Assembly: GCA_963514005.1 (NCBI GenBank)
Contig: OY740796.1
Coordinates: 18,786,001 to 18,850,000 of the forward strand
Length of the DNA: 64,000 bases
From: Raja brachyura
Lineage: Eukaryota
Reading direction: 5' to 3'
Part shown: one piece after another, positions 5,021 to 60,859 of the stretch
Position numbering within the stretch: position 1 is the stretch's first letter
How the letters are laid out: the number at the start of each line of letters is the position of its first letter
Position numbers and translations under genes: made by a program
The notes under the pieces: model-generated
What the model was told of the DNA's origin: nothing
The model's database searches: none
What the model saw: only the letters and a program-made list of their open reading frames with translations

Positions 5021-5365
5021 AATCCATCGCTCAATTAATTAATTTAAGGATTCTTCAAAAATTATCTTTATGGAAACTAGAAGGAATTCTGGATAAAATG
5101 TAAAAGCAAGATGTGATGGGTTTTACCTAGAAATTGGACTAGTTTCAGGTTAGTCTTTAAATGCTGACTCACTTCCCTGTGGCCAGTCAGAGCAGCAATG
5201 AGGCAGCATCTTCCAGTTCCTCACACTGGTTCCTATCACTGCACGGATCCACTGTGTTAAACGCCATGAGGATTTCTGTAATGGATCTTTACCCACATTC
5301 GTGTGTAATTTTTTTTTGTAACTCATTTTGGGCCTTAGCACACATATAGTCCAATTTCCAGACAT

Positions 5366-5930
5366 TTGTCCACGTTGTCCGTGGCGATGACAGCGCGCCG
5401 CCGCCGTTACTCACCCGGCTGCCGCTGCCGCTGCCTCCTCCTCTCAGGCGAGTTGGCAGCTCGAGCGCCGGCGGCTCACACGCGCCCTGCCCTGCCCTGC
5501 CCGCGCCCCGCGCGCTCCCTTCCATTTGACGGCGGGCACGCGCGGGCCGGGCAAACTGCCGCCGGCGCCTCCCAGTGCGCCTGCGCGGACGTTTCCCGCC
5601 CCTCTGCCAACGGCCGGGTGATTGGAGAGTGAACGAGGGAGACAGTGCGCAGGCGCGGGGGAGCGGGCGGGAAAAGCCTGACATCGGCGGCAGCCGCCAT
5701 CGACCAGAGGACGAGTCCGAGTCCGAGTTCGTGTCCGCGTCTGAGCGGTAAAGCAAGCCCTCAGTTTCCCCAACTCTTCCAGCCGTCCGAGCTTAAACCG
5801 AAGCGAAGCATAAGTGAACCGAAGTGACTCAACGGGTCGGGCAGCATCTGTGGAGGGAGATGAACAGGCGACGTTCCGGGTCTTCAGACACCTTCAACTG
5901 ACAAGCAAACGGGCTCAGGGCGCCGCATTG
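5366..5930. promoter_or_regulatory. CpG island, candidate bidirectional promoter
   Basis: Sharp rise in GC and CpG. NRF1-like GCGCCTGCGC at 5577-5586 and its reverse complement at 5647-5656; E2F-like TTTCCCGCC at 5592-5600 and GGCGGGAAA at 5666-5674; ATTGG at 5621-5625. Outward-facing donor-like sites on both strands. Confidence 0.7.
5415..5560 (-). other. Putative first exon of an unidentified minus-strand transcript
   Basis: Consensus donor CGG|GTGAGT (plus-strand ACTCAC at 5409-5414) at the edge of the CpG island. The 5' boundary is a guess. Confidence 0.55.
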
Positions 5931-8727: not shown

Positions 8728-8952
8728 ATGGCAGAAGCCAGACTGACATTTTATAACTTGACAACAGAACTCCTCAATGGAGAAATCTTCAATTTTTCCG
8801 ATCTCAAAGGAAAGGTGGTGTTAATTGAAAATGTTGCATCCCTATGAGGGACAACTACCAGGGATTACCAGCAGATGAATGAGCTCCAGAGCCGCTATGG
8901 CAGCCAGGGGTTTGTGGTTCTGGGTTTTCCCTGCAATCAGTTTGGTTACCAG
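8728..8952 (+). CDS. GPX1: Glutathione peroxidase (GPX1/2 family selenoprotein), coding exon 1 with Sec codon TGA at 8845-8847
   Basis: [75 protein letters not shown]; phase-0 donor CAG|GTAAAT. The GPX1 name rests partly on linkage to USP4; it could be a GPX1/2 paralogue. Confidence 0.93.
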
Positions 8953-9671
8953 GTAAATGTGACATTAAAAAAAACCCATCATCTTTGTCTCACTTACTTT
9001 AGTTGACTTGTTTCCTAGTGAAAATTTCAAGCTGTTTTATATAAACTTATTTATTACAGCAACACTGGTAAATTTAATTACATTGTATTAAATTAAATAT
9101 TTAAGCCAGATTTCATTTTAAGGAATTTATCATAAATATCCTTATAGCTCCCAAATTTGTAATTCTAATTCTTAATTGTAGACATTCAAAATTCTTCGTT
9201 GTCATACAGGTCTTCCTCAGTTTATAAACACCCAACCTATATACGGCTTATACATTTGAGCAAGTACTTGGGAGACTGGCGGGGTAGATTTGCCAGCTGC
9301 TGTGGGACTTCAGGCATCTTCTAGCGTGTGGGAACTTGGTTTGTGACTGGATTTCCAGCATGTCAACCATTTAGCTTATGAAAAGTTCTCGGGAATGGAA
9401 ATCTGCGGAGAACCTGTATGACGAAATCTCTGCTCACTTCAACATAGGCAATTTAGGAACTGGTTAAGCTTACGTAAAAATGACCTCTTAAAGTAACTCA
9501 CAATGCCATGATGAGTTCTATTTTTAAACACATGAAGGTATGCTTCTCATAAATGGTTCTCTATCCATGTGGATTGAATCTGGTTCTCTATCCACAAGTG
9601 CTGCCTAATCTGCAGCACAATTGCAGTTTTGTTCCACGGAGATTATTTGGGAAAAATAGTTATTATTGAGA

Positions 9672-9952
9672 TTAGTTTAGAGATACAGTCTGGAACCAGG
9701 CGCTTGGGCCCACTCAGTCTGCGCTGACCAGCGATCCCCGCATACTAACACACTAAGGACAATTTACAATTTCACCCAGCCAATTAGCCTACAAACCTGT
9801 ACGTCATTGGAGTGTGAGAGGAAACTGGCGCTCCCGGAGAAAACCCACGTGGATCACGGGGAGTATGTACAAACTCCGCAAGACATCACCCGTAGTTAGG
9901 ATCACACCTGGGCTTCTGGCAGTCTAAGGCAGCAACGGTATTGCCGCCCTTA
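9672..9952 (-). mobile_element. V-SINE (HE1-like) in the GPX intron
   Basis: Reverse complement of the V domain (GAGGAAACTGGCGCTCCCGGAGAAAACCCACG) and a tRNA-like head near 9950. Confidence 0.75.
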
Positions 9953-10159
9953 CTATAGTTATTTTTGAAAATGTATCTGAATCCAAAACTAAATTTACAC
10001 CGTTCAGATAAATCTTCACTTGTGGAAAACATTAGCAGTGAAAGTGTTGGCTTAGTTCCATTTTGCGAAAAAATACCTATAAGATTCCATGACATGCATA
10101 TGTGGCTTGCATAAAATTATATTCCTTGTACTTGACCTTGCTTTATATTGATTTTGTAG

Positions 10160-10552
10160 GAAAATATCTACAATGAGGAGATTCTTAATTCTTTGAAATA
10201 TGTCCGTCCAGGCAATGGCTTTGAGCCCAATTTTTCTATATCTAAAAAGATGGAGGTCAATGGAGAAGATGAAAATCCAATCTTTACTTTTCTGAAACAG
10301 AGGTTGCCTGAAGCCCATGATGATCCTAAAACCTTAATGGTGGATCCCAAGTTCATAATCTGGAGGCCAGTCCATCGAAGCGATATAGGCTGGAATTTTG
10401 AGAAATTCCTTATTGGACGGGATGGTGAGCCATTCAGGCGATACAGCAAGAATTTCCTCACTATTGATGTTGACGAAGACATCAGAGCTCTTTTACAAAG
10501 TAATGAAAGACCATCTGATAAAGCCATTGAAGAAGAAATTGAAGTTGAGTAA
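10160..10552 (+). CDS. GPX1: Glutathione peroxidase, coding exon 2 (protein 205 aa in total)
   Basis: Acceptor TTTTGTAG|[28 protein letters not shown]...[22 protein letters not shown]...TAA. Catalytic Gln, Trp and Asn motifs intact. Confidence 0.95.
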
Positions 10553-10789
10553 CGTTTACAGTAGTTTTCAATGTTGAGCATGTTATGTTATGCTTTGTAT
10601 AAAGATTAGCCACAGGTATATAAATGTAAAATTCAATAATCACCACCTTTATGGATAATTGCATTTATAGTGCTAATCCAATTGGTCTGTTTGCTGTTTA
10701 GATTTTTTTTTTGTAAATGTTAAATGCATAAAAAGTTTCCTCAGTGAGATCCTGATTTCTCTGCTAAATGAGCCAATCCAGTTTCAGAT

Positions 10790-10867
10790 GTTAGACATTT
10801 TACTATATGATGGTGCTTTTTCAAAGGTCTGCTGAAAAGTACTTAATGTAGCCTGTAAAAGTCTAAC
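10790..10867 (+). promoter_or_regulatory. SECIS-like stem-loop in the GPX 3' UTR (non-canonical 3' core)
   Basis: ATGA at 10807-10810; helix GGTGCTTTTT (10812-10821) pairs with GAAAAGTACT (10834-10843); apical AAA at 10823-10825; lower helices CTAT/GTAG, TTTTAC/GTAAAA and GTTAGAC/GTCTAAC. The 3' core is TAAT at 10844-10847. Confidence 0.75.
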
Positions 10868-10902
10868 TGGATATTGAAGGCAACTTGTAAGGAGAATCTT
10901 CC

Positions 10903-10908
10903 ATTAAA
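10903..10908 (+). terminator. Candidate GPX polyadenylation signal
   Basis: ATTAAA 36 nt after the SECIS hairpin, followed by a T-rich tract near 10935-10950. Confidence 0.5.
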
Positions 10909-12286
10909 GATGTTTTAAGAAAAAACCACGTCCCATTTTCAGTTTTATTGTAGGGACTTACACCTTGCAAAACAGGCAGGAGATTTTTTATCCAGACAAG
11001 TGGAGATATTCCATCATGCTCTTGACTTGAAGATAATTGAAAGACATCAGAGTATCAGGTGGTTTGATTTCTGCTGCAGCATCAGACCTGTTCTGTAGCC
11101 ATGTGGCCTATAGACAGTTAGCCCCCACTGAGCAACTTCTGCGTTCGCAGGATGTTGTCAGTGGGATAATTAGCAGTCATAATTCAATTGAACACCAAGG
11201 CATACAGGTTAGACTAAACACAAAATGCTGGAGTAATTCAGCAGAGCAGGCAACATTACCGGAGAGAAGGAATGGGTGACGTTTTGGATCGGGACTTCTT
11301 CAGACAGAGCCCATAGTTCTCCGACTAGTTTCACTGTCCTGATTAATTTTACTGTTTGTATGCCACCTTCCCCTCAGCTAACAATCAATCATTCTACATT
11401 TCCTTATCACCAACTGCTTTGAAATGTCATTTTCACACCTTGCCCCTTCATATCACTAGACTTTGTCTCCACTGACTCAGTCTGAAGGGTCTCAACCCAA
11501 AATGTTATCCATTCCTTCTCTCCAGAGATGCTGCCTGTCCCACTGAGTTACTCCAGCATTTCGTGTCCATCTTCAGTGTAAACCAGCATCTGCAGTTCCT
11601 TCCTACACATGGTTAGACGCGTGCTTGGTGGATGTTTAAAGGCATAAATGCTACTTGCCATTTACAGATCCGTGTCTGAATGAGAAGCAGTTTTCGCTGT
11701 ATATGTATGGTTTAATTTGCTGAGGATTTTCATGTGGATTTGATGTTAAGAGATATAACAGGGTATCTGGTGGAGGTGGTATTTTAAAGAAAGCTGATAT
11801 TTGAGGACTGGTATAATATAGTCTTCTTTTATTCCATGTGAGTACCAATTTCGTTTTTGGGTGATACACGAGTAAAAGTTAGTTTCACCTGAATGTCAGA
11901 GAAATACGGGTTTCTTTCCAAGCTTCAATTTCTTTCCAAGGTTTCATTCAAGCAAAAAAAAAACTAGAGTTATGTATTTTAAACTGGCACACTTTTTCAT
12001 GGATAGCAAAATGACATAGAGTAACAGCAATCATCTTTTATATCCCAAACATTCTTCAGTCATCTCCTTTAGCATGGGTTTGTGGAGATGATTACAAAAT
12101 AATACCAGGGTTAGATAACAGCATGTTCTATTGCAGTGAGCTGCTGGATCCCTTTTTCCCCTCCCCCCATAGCTTACCAGGAGTCTCAGCTATAGACAGC
12201 GATGCATCAGGGAGATAAAAATTACCCAGGCAGTTGCAGGAGGCAAACATTTCTTATTTGCCCACTGACCCATTGTACACAAGTCA

Positions 12287-15200
12287 CAGTGCCCTCCATA
12301 ATGTTTGGGACAAAGACCCTTTATTTAATTATTTGCCTCTACTCCACAATTGGAGATTTGTAATAGAAAAAAAAATCACATGTGTTTAAAGTGCACATTG
12401 TCAGGTTTTTAAAGGCAATTTTTATACATGTTGGTTTCACCATGTCAAAATTACAGCAGTGTTTGTACATAGCCCCCCCCCCCCCCCCCCACCCCCACCC
12501 ATTTCAGGGCACCATGTGTGGGACACAGCAATGTCATGTAAATAAAAGTAGTAATGTTTAGTATTTTGGTGCATACTCTTTGCATGCAATGACTGCTTGA
12601 AGTCTGCAATTCATGGACATCACCAGTTGCTAGGTGTCTTCTCTGGCAATGCTCTGCCAGGCCTGTAGTGCAGCCATCTTTAGCTGATGCGTGTTTTGGG
12701 GGCTAGTCTCCTTCAGTTTTCTCTTTAGCATATAAAAAGCACGCTCAATCGGGTGATTGACTTGGCCACTCAAGAATTGACAATTTTTTTAGCTTTGAAA
12801 AACTCATTTGTTGCTTCAGCAATATGTTTGGGATCATTGTCTTGCTGTAGAATGAATCACCAGCCAATGAGTTTTGAGGCATTTGTTTGAACTTGAGCAG
12901 ATAGGATGTGTCCATACACTTCAGAATTTATTATGCTACTACCATCAGCAGTTACATCATCATTGAAGATAAACGAGCAAGTACCTTCAGCAGCCATACA
13001 TGCCCAGGCTATAACACCCCCACCACTGTATTTCACAGATGAGGTGGTATGCTTTGGATCTTGGGCAGTTCCTTCCCTCCTCCATACTTTGCTCTTGCCA
13101 ACACTCCATATAAGTTAATCTTCATCTCATCTGTCCATAAGATGTTTTTCCATTCCGAAGAGTGGTTGCTCGTTTAAGTACTTCTTGGCAAACTGTAATC
13201 TGGCCAACCTAGTTTTGCAGCGAGCTAATGGTTTGCATCTTCCAGTGTGGCCTCTGTATTTCTGTTCATGAAGTCTTCTGTGGACAGTGGCCATTGACAA
13301 ATCCACACCTGACTCCTGAAGAGTGTTTCTGATCTGTCGGACAGGTGTTTGGGGATTTTTCTTTATTATAGAGAGAATTCTTCTGTCATCAGCTGTGGAG
13401 GTATTCCTTGGCCTGCCAATCCCTTTGCGATTAATAAACTCATCAGTGCTCTCTTTCTTCTTAATGATGTTCCAAACAGTTGATTTTGGTAAGTCTACGG
13501 TTTGGCTGATGTCTCAAGAGTTTTATTCTTATTTCTCAGTCTCATAATGGCTTCTTTGACTTTCATTTGCACAACTTTGGTTCTCATGTTGATAAATACA
13601 ATAAAAGTTTTCAAAGGTGATGGAAAGACTGTAATGAGTGCTCTTATACCTGGATTAAGAAGGCATATAAACACACCTGACGCCATGTGTCCCAAACATT
13701 ATGGTGCCCTGAAATTGGGAGTGTGGGGGGAACTATGTATAAATGCAGCTGTAATTTCTGCAGGGTGAAAACAAAATGTATAAAAGTGGCCTTTAATAAA
13801 ATCTTTGACTTTCATTGGGACAACTTTGGTTCTCATGTTGATAAACAGCATTAAAAGTTTCAAAAGGTGATGGAAAGAAAGGAGGAAAGACTAGGTGCTG
13901 AGAGCTCTCATACCTGCATTAAGGAGGCAATTATTACACACCTGAGCAGTTACAAACACCTGTGAGCCATGTATCCCAAACATTACGGTGCCTGAAACGG
14001 GGAGACGGATTTTGCTGGGAGGACGGATAACTTGTTTCTTGCTGCAGCAAATATTCTTGGATAAGCGAGTTCGGTATTACAACTGCGCATGCCCAGGTCA
14101 TGGGTCATTTGGGATAAACATTCTCACCTAGTGCGTGTGTGTGTGTGATCTATAATTAGATTTATCCATCAAATATGTCAACAGTAGGCCACAGCGTACT
14201 GCAGGCTGCACAAATCCACAATTGTATCTATTTAAATTAGAGATACTTTGTCGACAGTTGGGGTGGAGGATCTGGGAGAGCGAGGAGCTGGCAATGCCGC
14301 ACAGACGGAACAGTTTAAAAATGACCAACTAAAATCTGCCATTCGGCCACTCGGCAACCTGGGCTGATCTGATCTGACAGCCCTCTCGCGAGCTCGCTGC
14401 GTGCCCAATCCCAACGCGGAACCTCCACAAAACCTTTGGGCTTCGGGTAACACCTGCAGAAAGAGCCTCTGCTAACAAGAGCTGGCGAACTGTGCTGGTC
14501 AACGTGCACTGGGCGAGATGGATTTAATAGAAACGCACCGCAACCACCGCAAACTTGGAACAGCACAGACCCTCTACTCAAACTATCCAATACTAAAGGG
14601 CAGGTATTTCGCAGTTAAATGTCTTATATCAGATTGGCGGCTCCTTCACAGGTCCAACCCTGTACTCAGTTTTCCTCGTAGATGAATCTTTGCCTTAACG
14701 GTACATTCACACCGCCTGTAGGTAAAGCATCAGCCCACATCACACTGATAGTCGCTGCCTGCCTCAGATTAAATATATTATTAAATTATGAATAAAGATA
14801 AGAAAATGGCTCAAACACAAGTAATATCGGTCACATTATCCAGACAGGCGGCAGGGGATCAGGAGCTGATATGAGGCATCGGCGTTGCTCTGGAATCCTA
14901 GTCGGCCGCTGCGGGGTCGAGGAGGCAGCGCCCGGCTCGGATTCCAGAGCATCGCCGATGCCTCGCATCGGCTCCTGATCCCCTGCCGCCTGTCCGGATA
15001 ATGTGACCGATGTTGGCTGAGCTGAAGGTGGGATCCAACCACTCTCACAAAACGCTCGTGTACAACGAGGACGGTAAGATCACTCTGTTCACTCAATGCA
15101 AACTTCAGATCATTTGTTCCTTGCGCCCACAAAAATGCCCGCTCCCATCCATGGTGCAAGTGTAATATGTAGGAAGTCTGAAGGAGGGTCTTCTATCCAG

Positions 15201-15922
15201 ACAACCGCAGAGATCCAGAGGAGAGGTGCCGGCTCCAGCTCGACTCTGCTTACCCCTCCGGCGGGCTGGGCGGGGTTTAGCTAGAGTTGGTGCTTCTTTT
15301 CCGCGCCGCCTGCGGTCCTGGGCTGGCGCGATAGGCAAAGTCTAACTGGAGCCGCCCCCAGGGGATGTTAGGGACGAGACGCAAGTCTGCAGCCGTGCAG
15401 CGGCACAGCTGCTGAGTGTTTTCCCCGAGCGGCCCATGACCTATGCATGTGCAGTCGGAATACCGAACTCGCTTGTTGAGCATGCTTTTTATATGCTGAA
15501 GAGAAAACAGAAGGGGACTAGCCCCCAAAACAAGCATAAGCTAAAGATGGCTGCAATACAGGCCTGGCAGAGCATCACCAGAGAAGACACACGGTTACTG
15601 GTGATGTCCATGAATCGCAGACTTCAAGCAGTCATTGCATGCAATGGATATGCACCAAAATACTAAACATGACTACTTTCATTTACATGACATTGCTGTG
15701 TCCCATACGTTAAAGTGCCCTGAAATGGGGGAGGACTATGTATAAACACTGCTGTAATTTCTACATGGTGAAACCAAAATGTATAAAAATGGCCTTTATT
15801 AAAATCTGACAATGTGCACTTTAACCACATGTGATGTTTTCTATTACAAATCTCAAATTGTGGAGTACAGAGGCAAATAAATAAATGATGGGTCTTTGTC
15901 ACAAACATTATGGAGGGCACTG
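12287..15922 (-). mobile_element. Rearranged Tc1/mariner element with decayed transposase and internal cargo
   Basis: Termini CAGTGCCCTCCATAATGTTTG (12287) and CAAACATTATGGAGGGCACTG|TA (15922), long ~250-bp TIRs. Frameshifted transposase on - at about 12560-13590 (MRTKVVQMKVKEAIMRLRNKNKT...). Partial duplication at 13805-14005; cargo at about 14005-15475; plus-oriented transposase 3' end at 15475-15666. Confidence 0.85.
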
Positions 15923-16786
15923 TAAGTTTTTAAAAAAAGGCCTCTCCAAGAAAGGTCAAAATTGGGTGAAGTGGCAAGGAGGCATAATTAAAAGGTGCAT
16001 TGTATTCTTAAACAGATAATAGTACAAATATCGGCATGATCTGAGACATTAGATGCAAACTGAAAAGCTGGAATGTAATCGTCTGAGCATTTAACCTTTT
16101 AGAAGAATAGATGGAAAGGAAATGAAGGTGGTGCTGTTTTGTTTATTGAAAATGAGATATTTGTGGCAGGGAGATAAAGTGGAGGGCAAGGTGCCACTGT
16201 TGGGAGAGTCCACAGGACCCCTTATACAAACTATACTGCATGACAGTATAAATCCATGGATGATCAAAATCGGAAGAAAACCAAACAGTTGTGATGACAA
16301 TATAATTATAAACAAAGATGGGAGAAATTAACAGGAATGGTACCTTGGATACTGAATGAAAACAAACTGAAACTAAAATATCATTGTTTTTGTAGCAGGT
16401 CGAGGAAAATAATTTCACATTTCAATAATAAGCCAGGATCTGTGGTGTGGCAGAACAAGATGCACATTGTATATTATTCAGATTATGATACTGGAGCCAA
16501 TTTCAATTTACAAAAGATAGATAGAAACAGAGCATCAGAGAGAATTAGAGATGAATTCAAAGGAAAACATTGTGAGAACATTATTCAGGGGAACTGACTA
16601 AAAATGGTCCACAGGACAACTTGGATGGATGTGGATGGTAGTTGATAATATGTTACAGAATTCAGTTACAAATCAGAGGTCATAAATATAATAGTGCATC
16701 AGTTTTTGCCAAAGAATCTCCACAAATATTACCATTCACGTTTCAGCTGAACCTAAATGACAGACGAGTCAACTCCAATCGTCGTC

Positions 16787-16792
16787 TTTATT
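16787..16792 (-). terminator. Candidate USP4 polyadenylation signal (alternative at 17270-17275)
   Basis: AATAAA on the minus strand about 720 nt after the USP4 stop; a second one about 240 nt after the stop. Confidence 0.45.
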
Positions 16793-17514
16793 TAAGTAGA
16801 CATATGTATTAAAACTAGTCACTTACAAAGTGCCAGTTTGGGCAAAAGGACTAGAAGAAACTGATGTAAAATTTACATTACAATACATACACAGCAAACT
16901 TATGCTGGTTTGGATCAGTATCTTACCTGGGGGCTGGAAACCTTTGTTCCTCTGCCACCTATATTACAATATAATATTACAAATTTTAGTATCCCAGTCA
17001 CAATAGTCAAACCACAAATAAACCAGTGCTTTGCTACAAATTTAAAATGCAAGATTTCTGGGATAAGATGCAAGGTGTCATTCATGCAAAGAAATACCAT
17101 TAAACCAATAAGGAAACAATACAAGTGGTTTATGACAAACTTAAAAAAATCCAAATTAATTTGAGAAGGAACTGGGAAAAACTGCAACCCTTTCCGAAAA
17201 TAAACCAAACCAAAAAACCCTGATGTCAAATAGCAGATGAAGAACTTCACTTAAAAATTTCCAAAGCCGTTTATTTTACAGTGCAGTGACATTCATTTCT
17301 TATTCATCAGAAATCATCAGTAGATTCTGAGCCAGAGCACCACTGAACAAAGGTTAACCAACTGACATTCCTGTTCAATCTAGTCATCCAGAATTTGCGT
17401 CTAAAAAGGTGATGCCATCAGGAGGGTTCTCTTTTCTTCCTACTCCCTCGAAGGGAGCCGGTGCTGAGGATACAGAGCAGCACTGTCCAGAAACAGTTTA
17501 TATGTTCTTCTTGC

Positions 17515-60859
<43,345 letters not shown>

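Follow-up and report, generated by a model that had tools for sequence, protein, structure and literature searches.

A skate GPX1-type gene with a SECIS-homologous hairpin carrying AA instead of GA in its 3' core

Among the features of vertebrate SECIS elements, the GA/GA core alone is regarded as invariant, and SECISearch3 uses it as a hard filter. The window considered here (the whole stretch of 64,000 nucleotides from Raja brachyura that was analysed) contains a GPX1-type gene with an in-frame UGA and, in its 3' UTR, a SECIS-like hairpin whose second sheared pair has A (A10845) in place of G. The locus thus raises the question of whether such an element can still work, or whether a single base of the 3' UTR has silenced the gene. 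The variant is shared between species, apparently unreported in vertebrates, and structurally plausible; its function is predicted only.

The hairpin and the gene that carries it

The bases of the core, read directly, are UGAU on the 5' side and UAAU on the 3' side, where A10845 stands in the place of the G that belongs to the SECIS 3' core (Table 1). All other SECIS features are present. Helix II, with its 10 pairs, is followed by a C10822/U10833 mismatch, and helix I comprises 13 pairs and one bulge in the predicted fold. The hairpin folds with -23.2 kcal/mol (z -3.16), a stability equalled in 1 of 200 shuffles. In 1000 dinucleotide shuffles of the 3' UTR (10553-10960), a SECIS-shaped match was obtained 21 times and an equally good one never. 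The earlier note on this DNA had described AUGA, a 10-bp helix II, an apical AAA and a long helix I, together with an A at 10845 instead of the core G; the bases and the fold bear out the shape, and direct reading confirms the A.

Helix I, internal loop, helix II and apical loop are all recognizable, as judged from the prediction and from the pair-keeping differences to the paralogue. The 5' RUGA is represented by AUGA (10807-10810) and the unpaired apical AA by AAA, and the gene in whose 3' UTR the hairpin lies has an in-frame UGA at the Sec position. The 3' GA needed for the tandem sheared pairs is, however, replaced by AA (10845-10846), and the hairpin is therefore not placed among the canonical eukaryotic SECIS elements. 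The third pair, U10811.U10844, is non-Watson-Crick and the fourth is G10812.U10843, both fitting the rules favoured by SBP2 (PMC1874613). In the putative kink-turn mapping, the element has the composition of the G2nA class, with G10809, A10810 and A10846 kept and A10845 at position 2n. The spliced model puts the hairpin about 750 nt from the UGA, inside the range of 0.2-5.2 kb quoted for the UGA-to-SECIS distance (PMC4989117).

Table 1. Features of the GPX1-type gene and of its hairpin, in window positions
Feature	Positions	Strand	Basis
First coding exon of the GPX1-type gene, ATG to splice donor	8728..8952	+	Pfam GSHPx 3e-26; donor CAG/GT (exon/intron); X10 contig joins 8950 to 10158
In-frame UGA at the selenocysteine position, codon 40	8845..8847	+	Unchanged in X10, with 0 other letters over 8819-8950
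Intron, GT..AG	8953..10159	+	Splice sites; X10 contig
Second coding exon to TAA, WNFEKF motif intact	10160..10552	+	Translation
SECIS-homologous hairpin, type I shape	10790..10867	+	Fold, paralogue homology, scan, shuffles
Helix I, 5' strand, pairs with 10855-10867	10790..10803	+	Fold
5' core A-UGAU (A10807 to U10811); putative kink-turn L2, L3 (U10808), G1b (10809), A2b (10810), U3b (10811)	10807..10811	+	Bases read; nomenclature of PMC3985660 and PMC1874613
Helix II, 5' strand, pairs with 10834-10843; first pair G.U	10812..10821	+	Fold
Apical AAA	10823..10825	+	Bases read
3' core U10844-A10845-A10846-U10847; putative U3n, 2n = A10845 (normally G), A1n = 10846	10844..10847	+	Bases read; G in the paralogue; A in organisms D and E
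Helix I, 3' strand	10855..10867	+	Fold
ATTAAA, likely polyadenylation signal, 36 nt 3' of the hairpin	10903..10908	+	Motif only

The gene consists of two coding exons separated by a GT-AG intron, with 205 codons and a single in-frame UGA located 105 nt upstream of the exon junction, a model in which the intact reading frame described earlier holds. The product has a GSHPx domain with the Sec, Gln and Trp-Asn catalytic motifs, residues that presumably play these roles in the window protein. In a tree of 22 rows, the gene falls outside the GPX2 clade, with which a copy on contig C9 groups (100/97), and is found among ray and shark proteins on the shorter branch of its tandem pair, the deeper forks being weak. 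USP4 exons occupy 17500-48005 of the minus strand, convergent with the GPX gene; GPX1 is likewise linked to USP4 in human, and this neighbourhood, with the position outside the GPX2 clade, marks the gene as GPX1 rather than GPX2. Antisense overlap with USP4 is an unlikely cause of conservation, the last USP4 coding exon lying near 17646. A third exon like that proposed for the paralogue was set aside for the window gene; X10 contigs run past the TAA into the hairpin. Further upstream, a GC-rich island (5340-5830) with a possible donor near 5747 may be where the GPX gene has its promoter and a first exon that is non-coding.

The window protein is identical to that of Pristis at 125 of 138 residues. 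The Amblyraja protein is full-length and differs from it at 5 residues apart from the Sec position, which is the reason for the label "skate". A full-length Logan protein also shows 5 differences apart from this position. One Logan protein (P0127) carries a W there, a point on the side of lost function, which may be either a UGA under another code or a real TGG. The available part of the PMC13134290 supplement predicts Sec in 9 of 9 listed chondrichthyan orthologues, and the window gene and its tandem partner, both with Sec, are found in 9 of 9 matches (sharks, rays and a skate). The same paper reports a chondrichthyan GPX1 duplicate named GPX1c; neither this name nor any text on SECIS was found in that part of its supplement. 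A metagenome scan for the elasmobranch locus returned none, with a best match of 50% identity.

Origin and distribution of A10845

When the plus strand was scanned from 10501 to 20000 with the 2n base left free, the hairpin at 10790-10867 was the sole candidate among the matches listed. The earlier claim that it is the only SECIS-shaped hairpin of the 3' UTR therefore stands, no canonical alternative appearing in the 9.5 kb downstream among those matches. Applied to 11 further regions, the same scan found convincing elements in 9 of them, 10 in all, and none in the remaining two. All 10 carry G at 2n, although these elements were chosen by place and energy, a choice that may favour canonical ones. 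They belong to genes which we take, from Pfam matches and known motifs, to be three deiodinases, GPX4, GPX3, two GPX2, an Rdx-family gene, a Sep15-like gene and the tandem paralogue. A hairpin directly 3' of the GPX2 stops was considered as a damaged SECIS and rejected, with better, canonical elements further downstream.

Covariance searches were of little help for this family. An Rfam search of the window gave no SECIS match, SECIS_1 (RF00031) passing over this copy at E <= 10; the canonical paralogue itself receives 23.5 bits, also below the 35-bit cut-off. A whole-genome search with RF00031 returned no matches anywhere and missed the control SECIS loci too. A weak SNORA16 match at 11906-12019 (26.6 bits against a cut-off of 35) is probably due to chance.

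Besides the window gene, three further GPX1/2 genes were located in the genome: a tandem paralogue about 35 kb upstream of it, and two GPX2-like copies that lie on C9. The 3' UTR of the window gene matches one other genomic place, the SECIS of the tandem paralogue (79 nt, 80% identical, E 3e-10), whose core is UGAU/UGAU. Because this homologous element carries G at the base aligned to 10845, the comparison indicates that A10845 is derived. By position and by this sequence ancestry, the hairpin is identified as the SECIS of the window gene. The two elements differ at 6 of 48 paired positions versus 10 of 30 others, and 4 of 5 changed pairs still pair, against 28 of 42 differing fourfold sites in the two tandem genes. 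This pattern indicates that, during most of their history, selection maintained the structure of both hairpins, or else that gene conversion homogenised them; it does not date A10845. In the window hairpin, the G-C pair that tops helix II in the paralogue is replaced by a C/U mismatch.

The paralogue SECIS lies 6.7 kb 3' of the second exon of its gene (C16:18761804-18768513). A GT following LLPQ, together with an AG at 18768336, points to a putative third exon encoding a short basic tail, with a UGA about 50 nt before the core. An orthologue search for the paralogue gave 1 protein at E <= 1e-45. The two GPX2-like genes are arranged in tandem (C9:59125132-59138700), each with a UGA and a canonical SECIS, and in the first of them Sec is followed by Arg rather than Gly, and the exon-2 match contains one TGA. 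Two dispersed fragments of exon 1 (110-120 nt, 92-94% identical to the window gene) were also found at C15:33911934 and C4:55468371, one with Trp at the Sec position and the other with stops; as they come without the 3' UTR, they are useless for dating the change to A.

The base was followed into other organisms through sequencing runs, all of them represented by contigs, which hide rare variants, rather than by raw reads, and with differences listed only where they lie some 31 letters or more from the end of a piece. Two of the four runs (X10 and X12) inform base 10845; of the other two, which come from the most distant organisms, X17 has a contig ending at 10827 and X19 gave no match. The X10 contig of organism D covers it at 34 nt from the piece end with no change listed, and the X12 contig of organism E spans the whole stretch with no change listed in 10790-10918, X12 holding the paralogue SECIS as a separate contig. 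For organism B, a contig (X3) spans 10845 with no change there among the 12 of 18 substitutions listed. The contig of organism A (X11, another sample) lies outside the hairpin, and for organism C (X7) 2 of 11 substitutions are listed. Judged from word shares, the divergence is about 1.9% for organism D and about 2.6% for organism E. The X10 contig joins 8950 to 10158, shows no unique cover of the intron and runs on into the hairpin, so that spliced mRNA is its simplest interpretation, despite the label "probably DNA".

A10845 is therefore common to organisms D and E, and is probably present in organism B as well. The earlier note had asked for a check of this base and had listed an assembly error and a private weak allele among its options. 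Contigs of two other organisms, one of them spliced and both from other studies, read A and not G, and both options are rejected: unless those contigs are wrong, an error or an allele private to the sequenced animal is hardly credible.

Candidate mechanism and alternatives

Two genes with an L7Ae-type helix were located in the genome, SBP2 at C3:66931218 and a probable SBP2L at C36:13263591, a label that we base on its motif. In the SBP2 exon that encodes the RNA-binding helix, the motif GLREVLKH is the same as in the human protein of structure 7zjw, so that no compensating change of SBP2 is seen in that exon. This unchanged motif is one of the points that stand against a working SECIS. Others are the G carried by all 10 of the other SECIS located in this genome, the GA/GA core, described as "essential and conserved" in every vertebrate SECIS examined (PMC3316567), the SBP2 SELEX, in which G arose and was selected at the 2n position in all winners (PMC1874613), the block that G2nA imposes on ion-induced folding, and the lost top pair of helix II. 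SECISearch3 uses the consensus UGAN/KGAW, and its filter discards candidates without GA-AG (PMC3753652).

In a kink-turn, named by Lilley's nomenclature, a bulge is followed by the pairs G1b.A1n and A2b.G2n (PMC3985660). If the SECIS AUGA corresponds to L2, L3, 1b and 2b, and the 3' GA to 2n and 1n, in line with PMC1874613, A10845 would occupy 2n. This is the position at which non-standard kink-turns vary most often (PMC5061560), and an A.A at 2b-2n is isosteric with A.G and folds with L7Ae or with tertiary contacts (PMC3985660, PMC5061560). The G2nA variant shows no ion-induced folding as a free duplex but folds within a riboswitch (PMC5061560), and L7Ae binds an A2n kink-turn normally, with only the contact of Asn33 to the G O6 being lost (PMC3985660). 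In kink-turn terms, 2n would thus be the most tolerant position of the core. Asgard SECIS elements with an AUGA...AA core are also known (PMC4989117, PMC11227280); as Asgard archaea are reported to be without SBP2 (a section title of PMC4989117), this precedent is about RNA shape and not about SBP2. The "AUGA_AA" of PMC3473315 refers to the apical AA rather than to the 3' core. Human SECIS strengths span over 2000-fold and include very weak ones (PMC2761289), so a weak element can be real. The premise that mutation of the tandem G.A pairs usually abolishes Sec insertion was thus only partly appropriate: the two pairs are unequal, and the change affects 2n, a position at which A does occur in natural kink-turns and in SECIS elements of Asgard archaea. 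In the largely open-access literature covered, no report of a vertebrate SECIS with a GA/AA core or of a skate SECIS was found.

The best explanation, held with little more than even confidence, is a working but weaker, protein-folded SECIS that has, in several related species, acquired an A in place of the G of its second sheared pair. Of the interpretations offered earlier, it is the tolerated natural variant that fares best. G10809.A10846 would form the normal first sheared pair, and A10810.A10845 a trans Hoogsteen/sugar pair of the same shape, with one hydrogen bond or none. The other SBP2 determinants (U10808, the U.U third pair and the G.U fourth pair) would be retained. The kink would not fold on ions alone, and SBP2 would be needed as a clamp; the lost contact to the G O6 would lower SBP2 affinity and, with it, read-through. 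Under low selenium, more nonsense-mediated decay would be expected, given the distance of the UGA to the exon junction. The more specific proposal is made tentatively, with somewhat less than even confidence: a vertebrate SECIS that inserts Sec in vivo at a useful level without one "invariant" sheared G.A pair, kept by selection on the more conserved skate GPX1 as a down-tuned, protein-folded kink-turn.

Alternatively, the G-to-A change may have killed the SECIS in a skate ancestor, leaving a pseudogene of recent origin that is still transcribed and whose loss the tandem paralogue and the two GPX2-like copies would buffer, in line with the recently inactivated paralogue of the earlier note. 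This is considered rather unlikely, although the vertebrate invariance of GA/GA (PMC3316567), the SELEX preference for G (PMC1874613), the unchanged SBP2 motif and the presence of three other GPX1/2 genes with canonical SECIS all favour it. The changed base is, however, the one that kink-turns tolerate best (PMC5061560), the window gene is the more conserved paralogue, and both the Amblyraja and the Logan protein are full-length, each differing at 5 residues outside the Sec position. Neither a stop nor a frameshift was found in exon 2 among the changes listed for organisms B, C and D. The listed changes of organism B are all synonymous (3 of 3 in exon 2, P about 0.01-0.02), which also speaks against loss; of all six distinct exon-2 changes listed, however, half are synonymous and half missense, 3 each (P 0.10-0.19). 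The missense changes, all three in one X10 contig of organism D (depth 5.6), agree with a dead gene, as does the low depth of the X10 contig, which is not an expression measure. The skate branch is slightly longer too, with 15 differences from the shark state at 127 sites versus 11 and 10 in two rays, mostly conservative. Where read, the hairpin is unchanged in organisms D and E, which counts against decay, although zero change would arise by chance with P 0.33 and 0.13, respectively, and so gives no proof of selection after the change. The species sharing the A are only about 1-3% apart, so decay may not yet show.

Two further explanations keep the element active by other means. It is improbable that another reader (SBP2L or ribosomal L30) or flanking 3' UTR structure helps, rather than SBP2 binding more weakly. 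The genome does encode SBP2 plus an SBP2L-like protein, and zebrafish Secisbp2l serves a subset of selenoproteins without Sbp2, but it is unable to support insertion in vitro (PMC8881744); L30 binds the same core, but its binding also requires the G.A pairs (PMC3706390). Less probable still is that A10845, located within a long hairpin, is edited to inosine in some transcripts, yielding a G-like base and a switchable SECIS. The X10 contig, most simply RNA, reads A, so editing would not be the major form, and the A.A mismatch is a poor context for ADAR, which counts against it as well. Inosine would, for its part, restore the O6 that L7Ae contacts at 2n (PMC3985660).

Two homologous SECIS elements, 80% identical and in one genome, differ at 2n and offer a natural pair for asking whether SBP2 needs G. 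If the window element is a working, weakened SECIS, SBP2 recognition is looser than the consensus, GA-AG filters are hiding real elements, both consensus and filters need loosening, and the Asgard GA/AA core gains a vertebrate parallel. If it is dead, the locus shows clearly how one base of the 3' UTR can silence a selenoprotein gene whose coding sequence still looks intact, and protein-based surveys of selenoproteomes would score such a gene as functional.

Comparison with known systems

At the level of the gene, the window copy and its upstream paralogue correspond to the chondrichthyan GPX1/GPX1c tandem pair of PMC13134290, where a pair of GPX1 predictions in tandem is given for 9 sharks, rays and skates. 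The hairpin resembles the eukaryotic type I SECIS of GPX1/GPX2 (Rfam RF00031) in its 3' UTR position, helix I, internal loop, AUGA, 10-bp helix II and apical AAA, and differs from it in the 3' core, which is UAAU.

The closest structural models for this core are Kt-23 of Thelohania solenopsae and the SAM-I riboswitch with G2nA (PMC3985660, PMC5061560), which share the A at 2n, keep G1b, A2b and A1n, and show an A.A isosteric with A.G. These kink-turns have, however, a 3-nt bulge and are folded by L7Ae or by tertiary contacts, whereas the skate element has a large internal loop. Its reader would be SBP2, in which motif alignment suggests an Arg in place of the Asn33 of L7Ae that contacts G2n.

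The Asgard elements, the lokiSECIS of VhuU (PMC4989117) and those of hdrA, frhD and frhA (PMC11227280), are archaeal, have a shorter stem, come from organisms with no SBP2 detected and were predicted by conservation. The A of the skate element is recent and independent, and no descent from them is implied. What they have in common with it is a GA/AA core in a SECIS placed behind selenoprotein genes.
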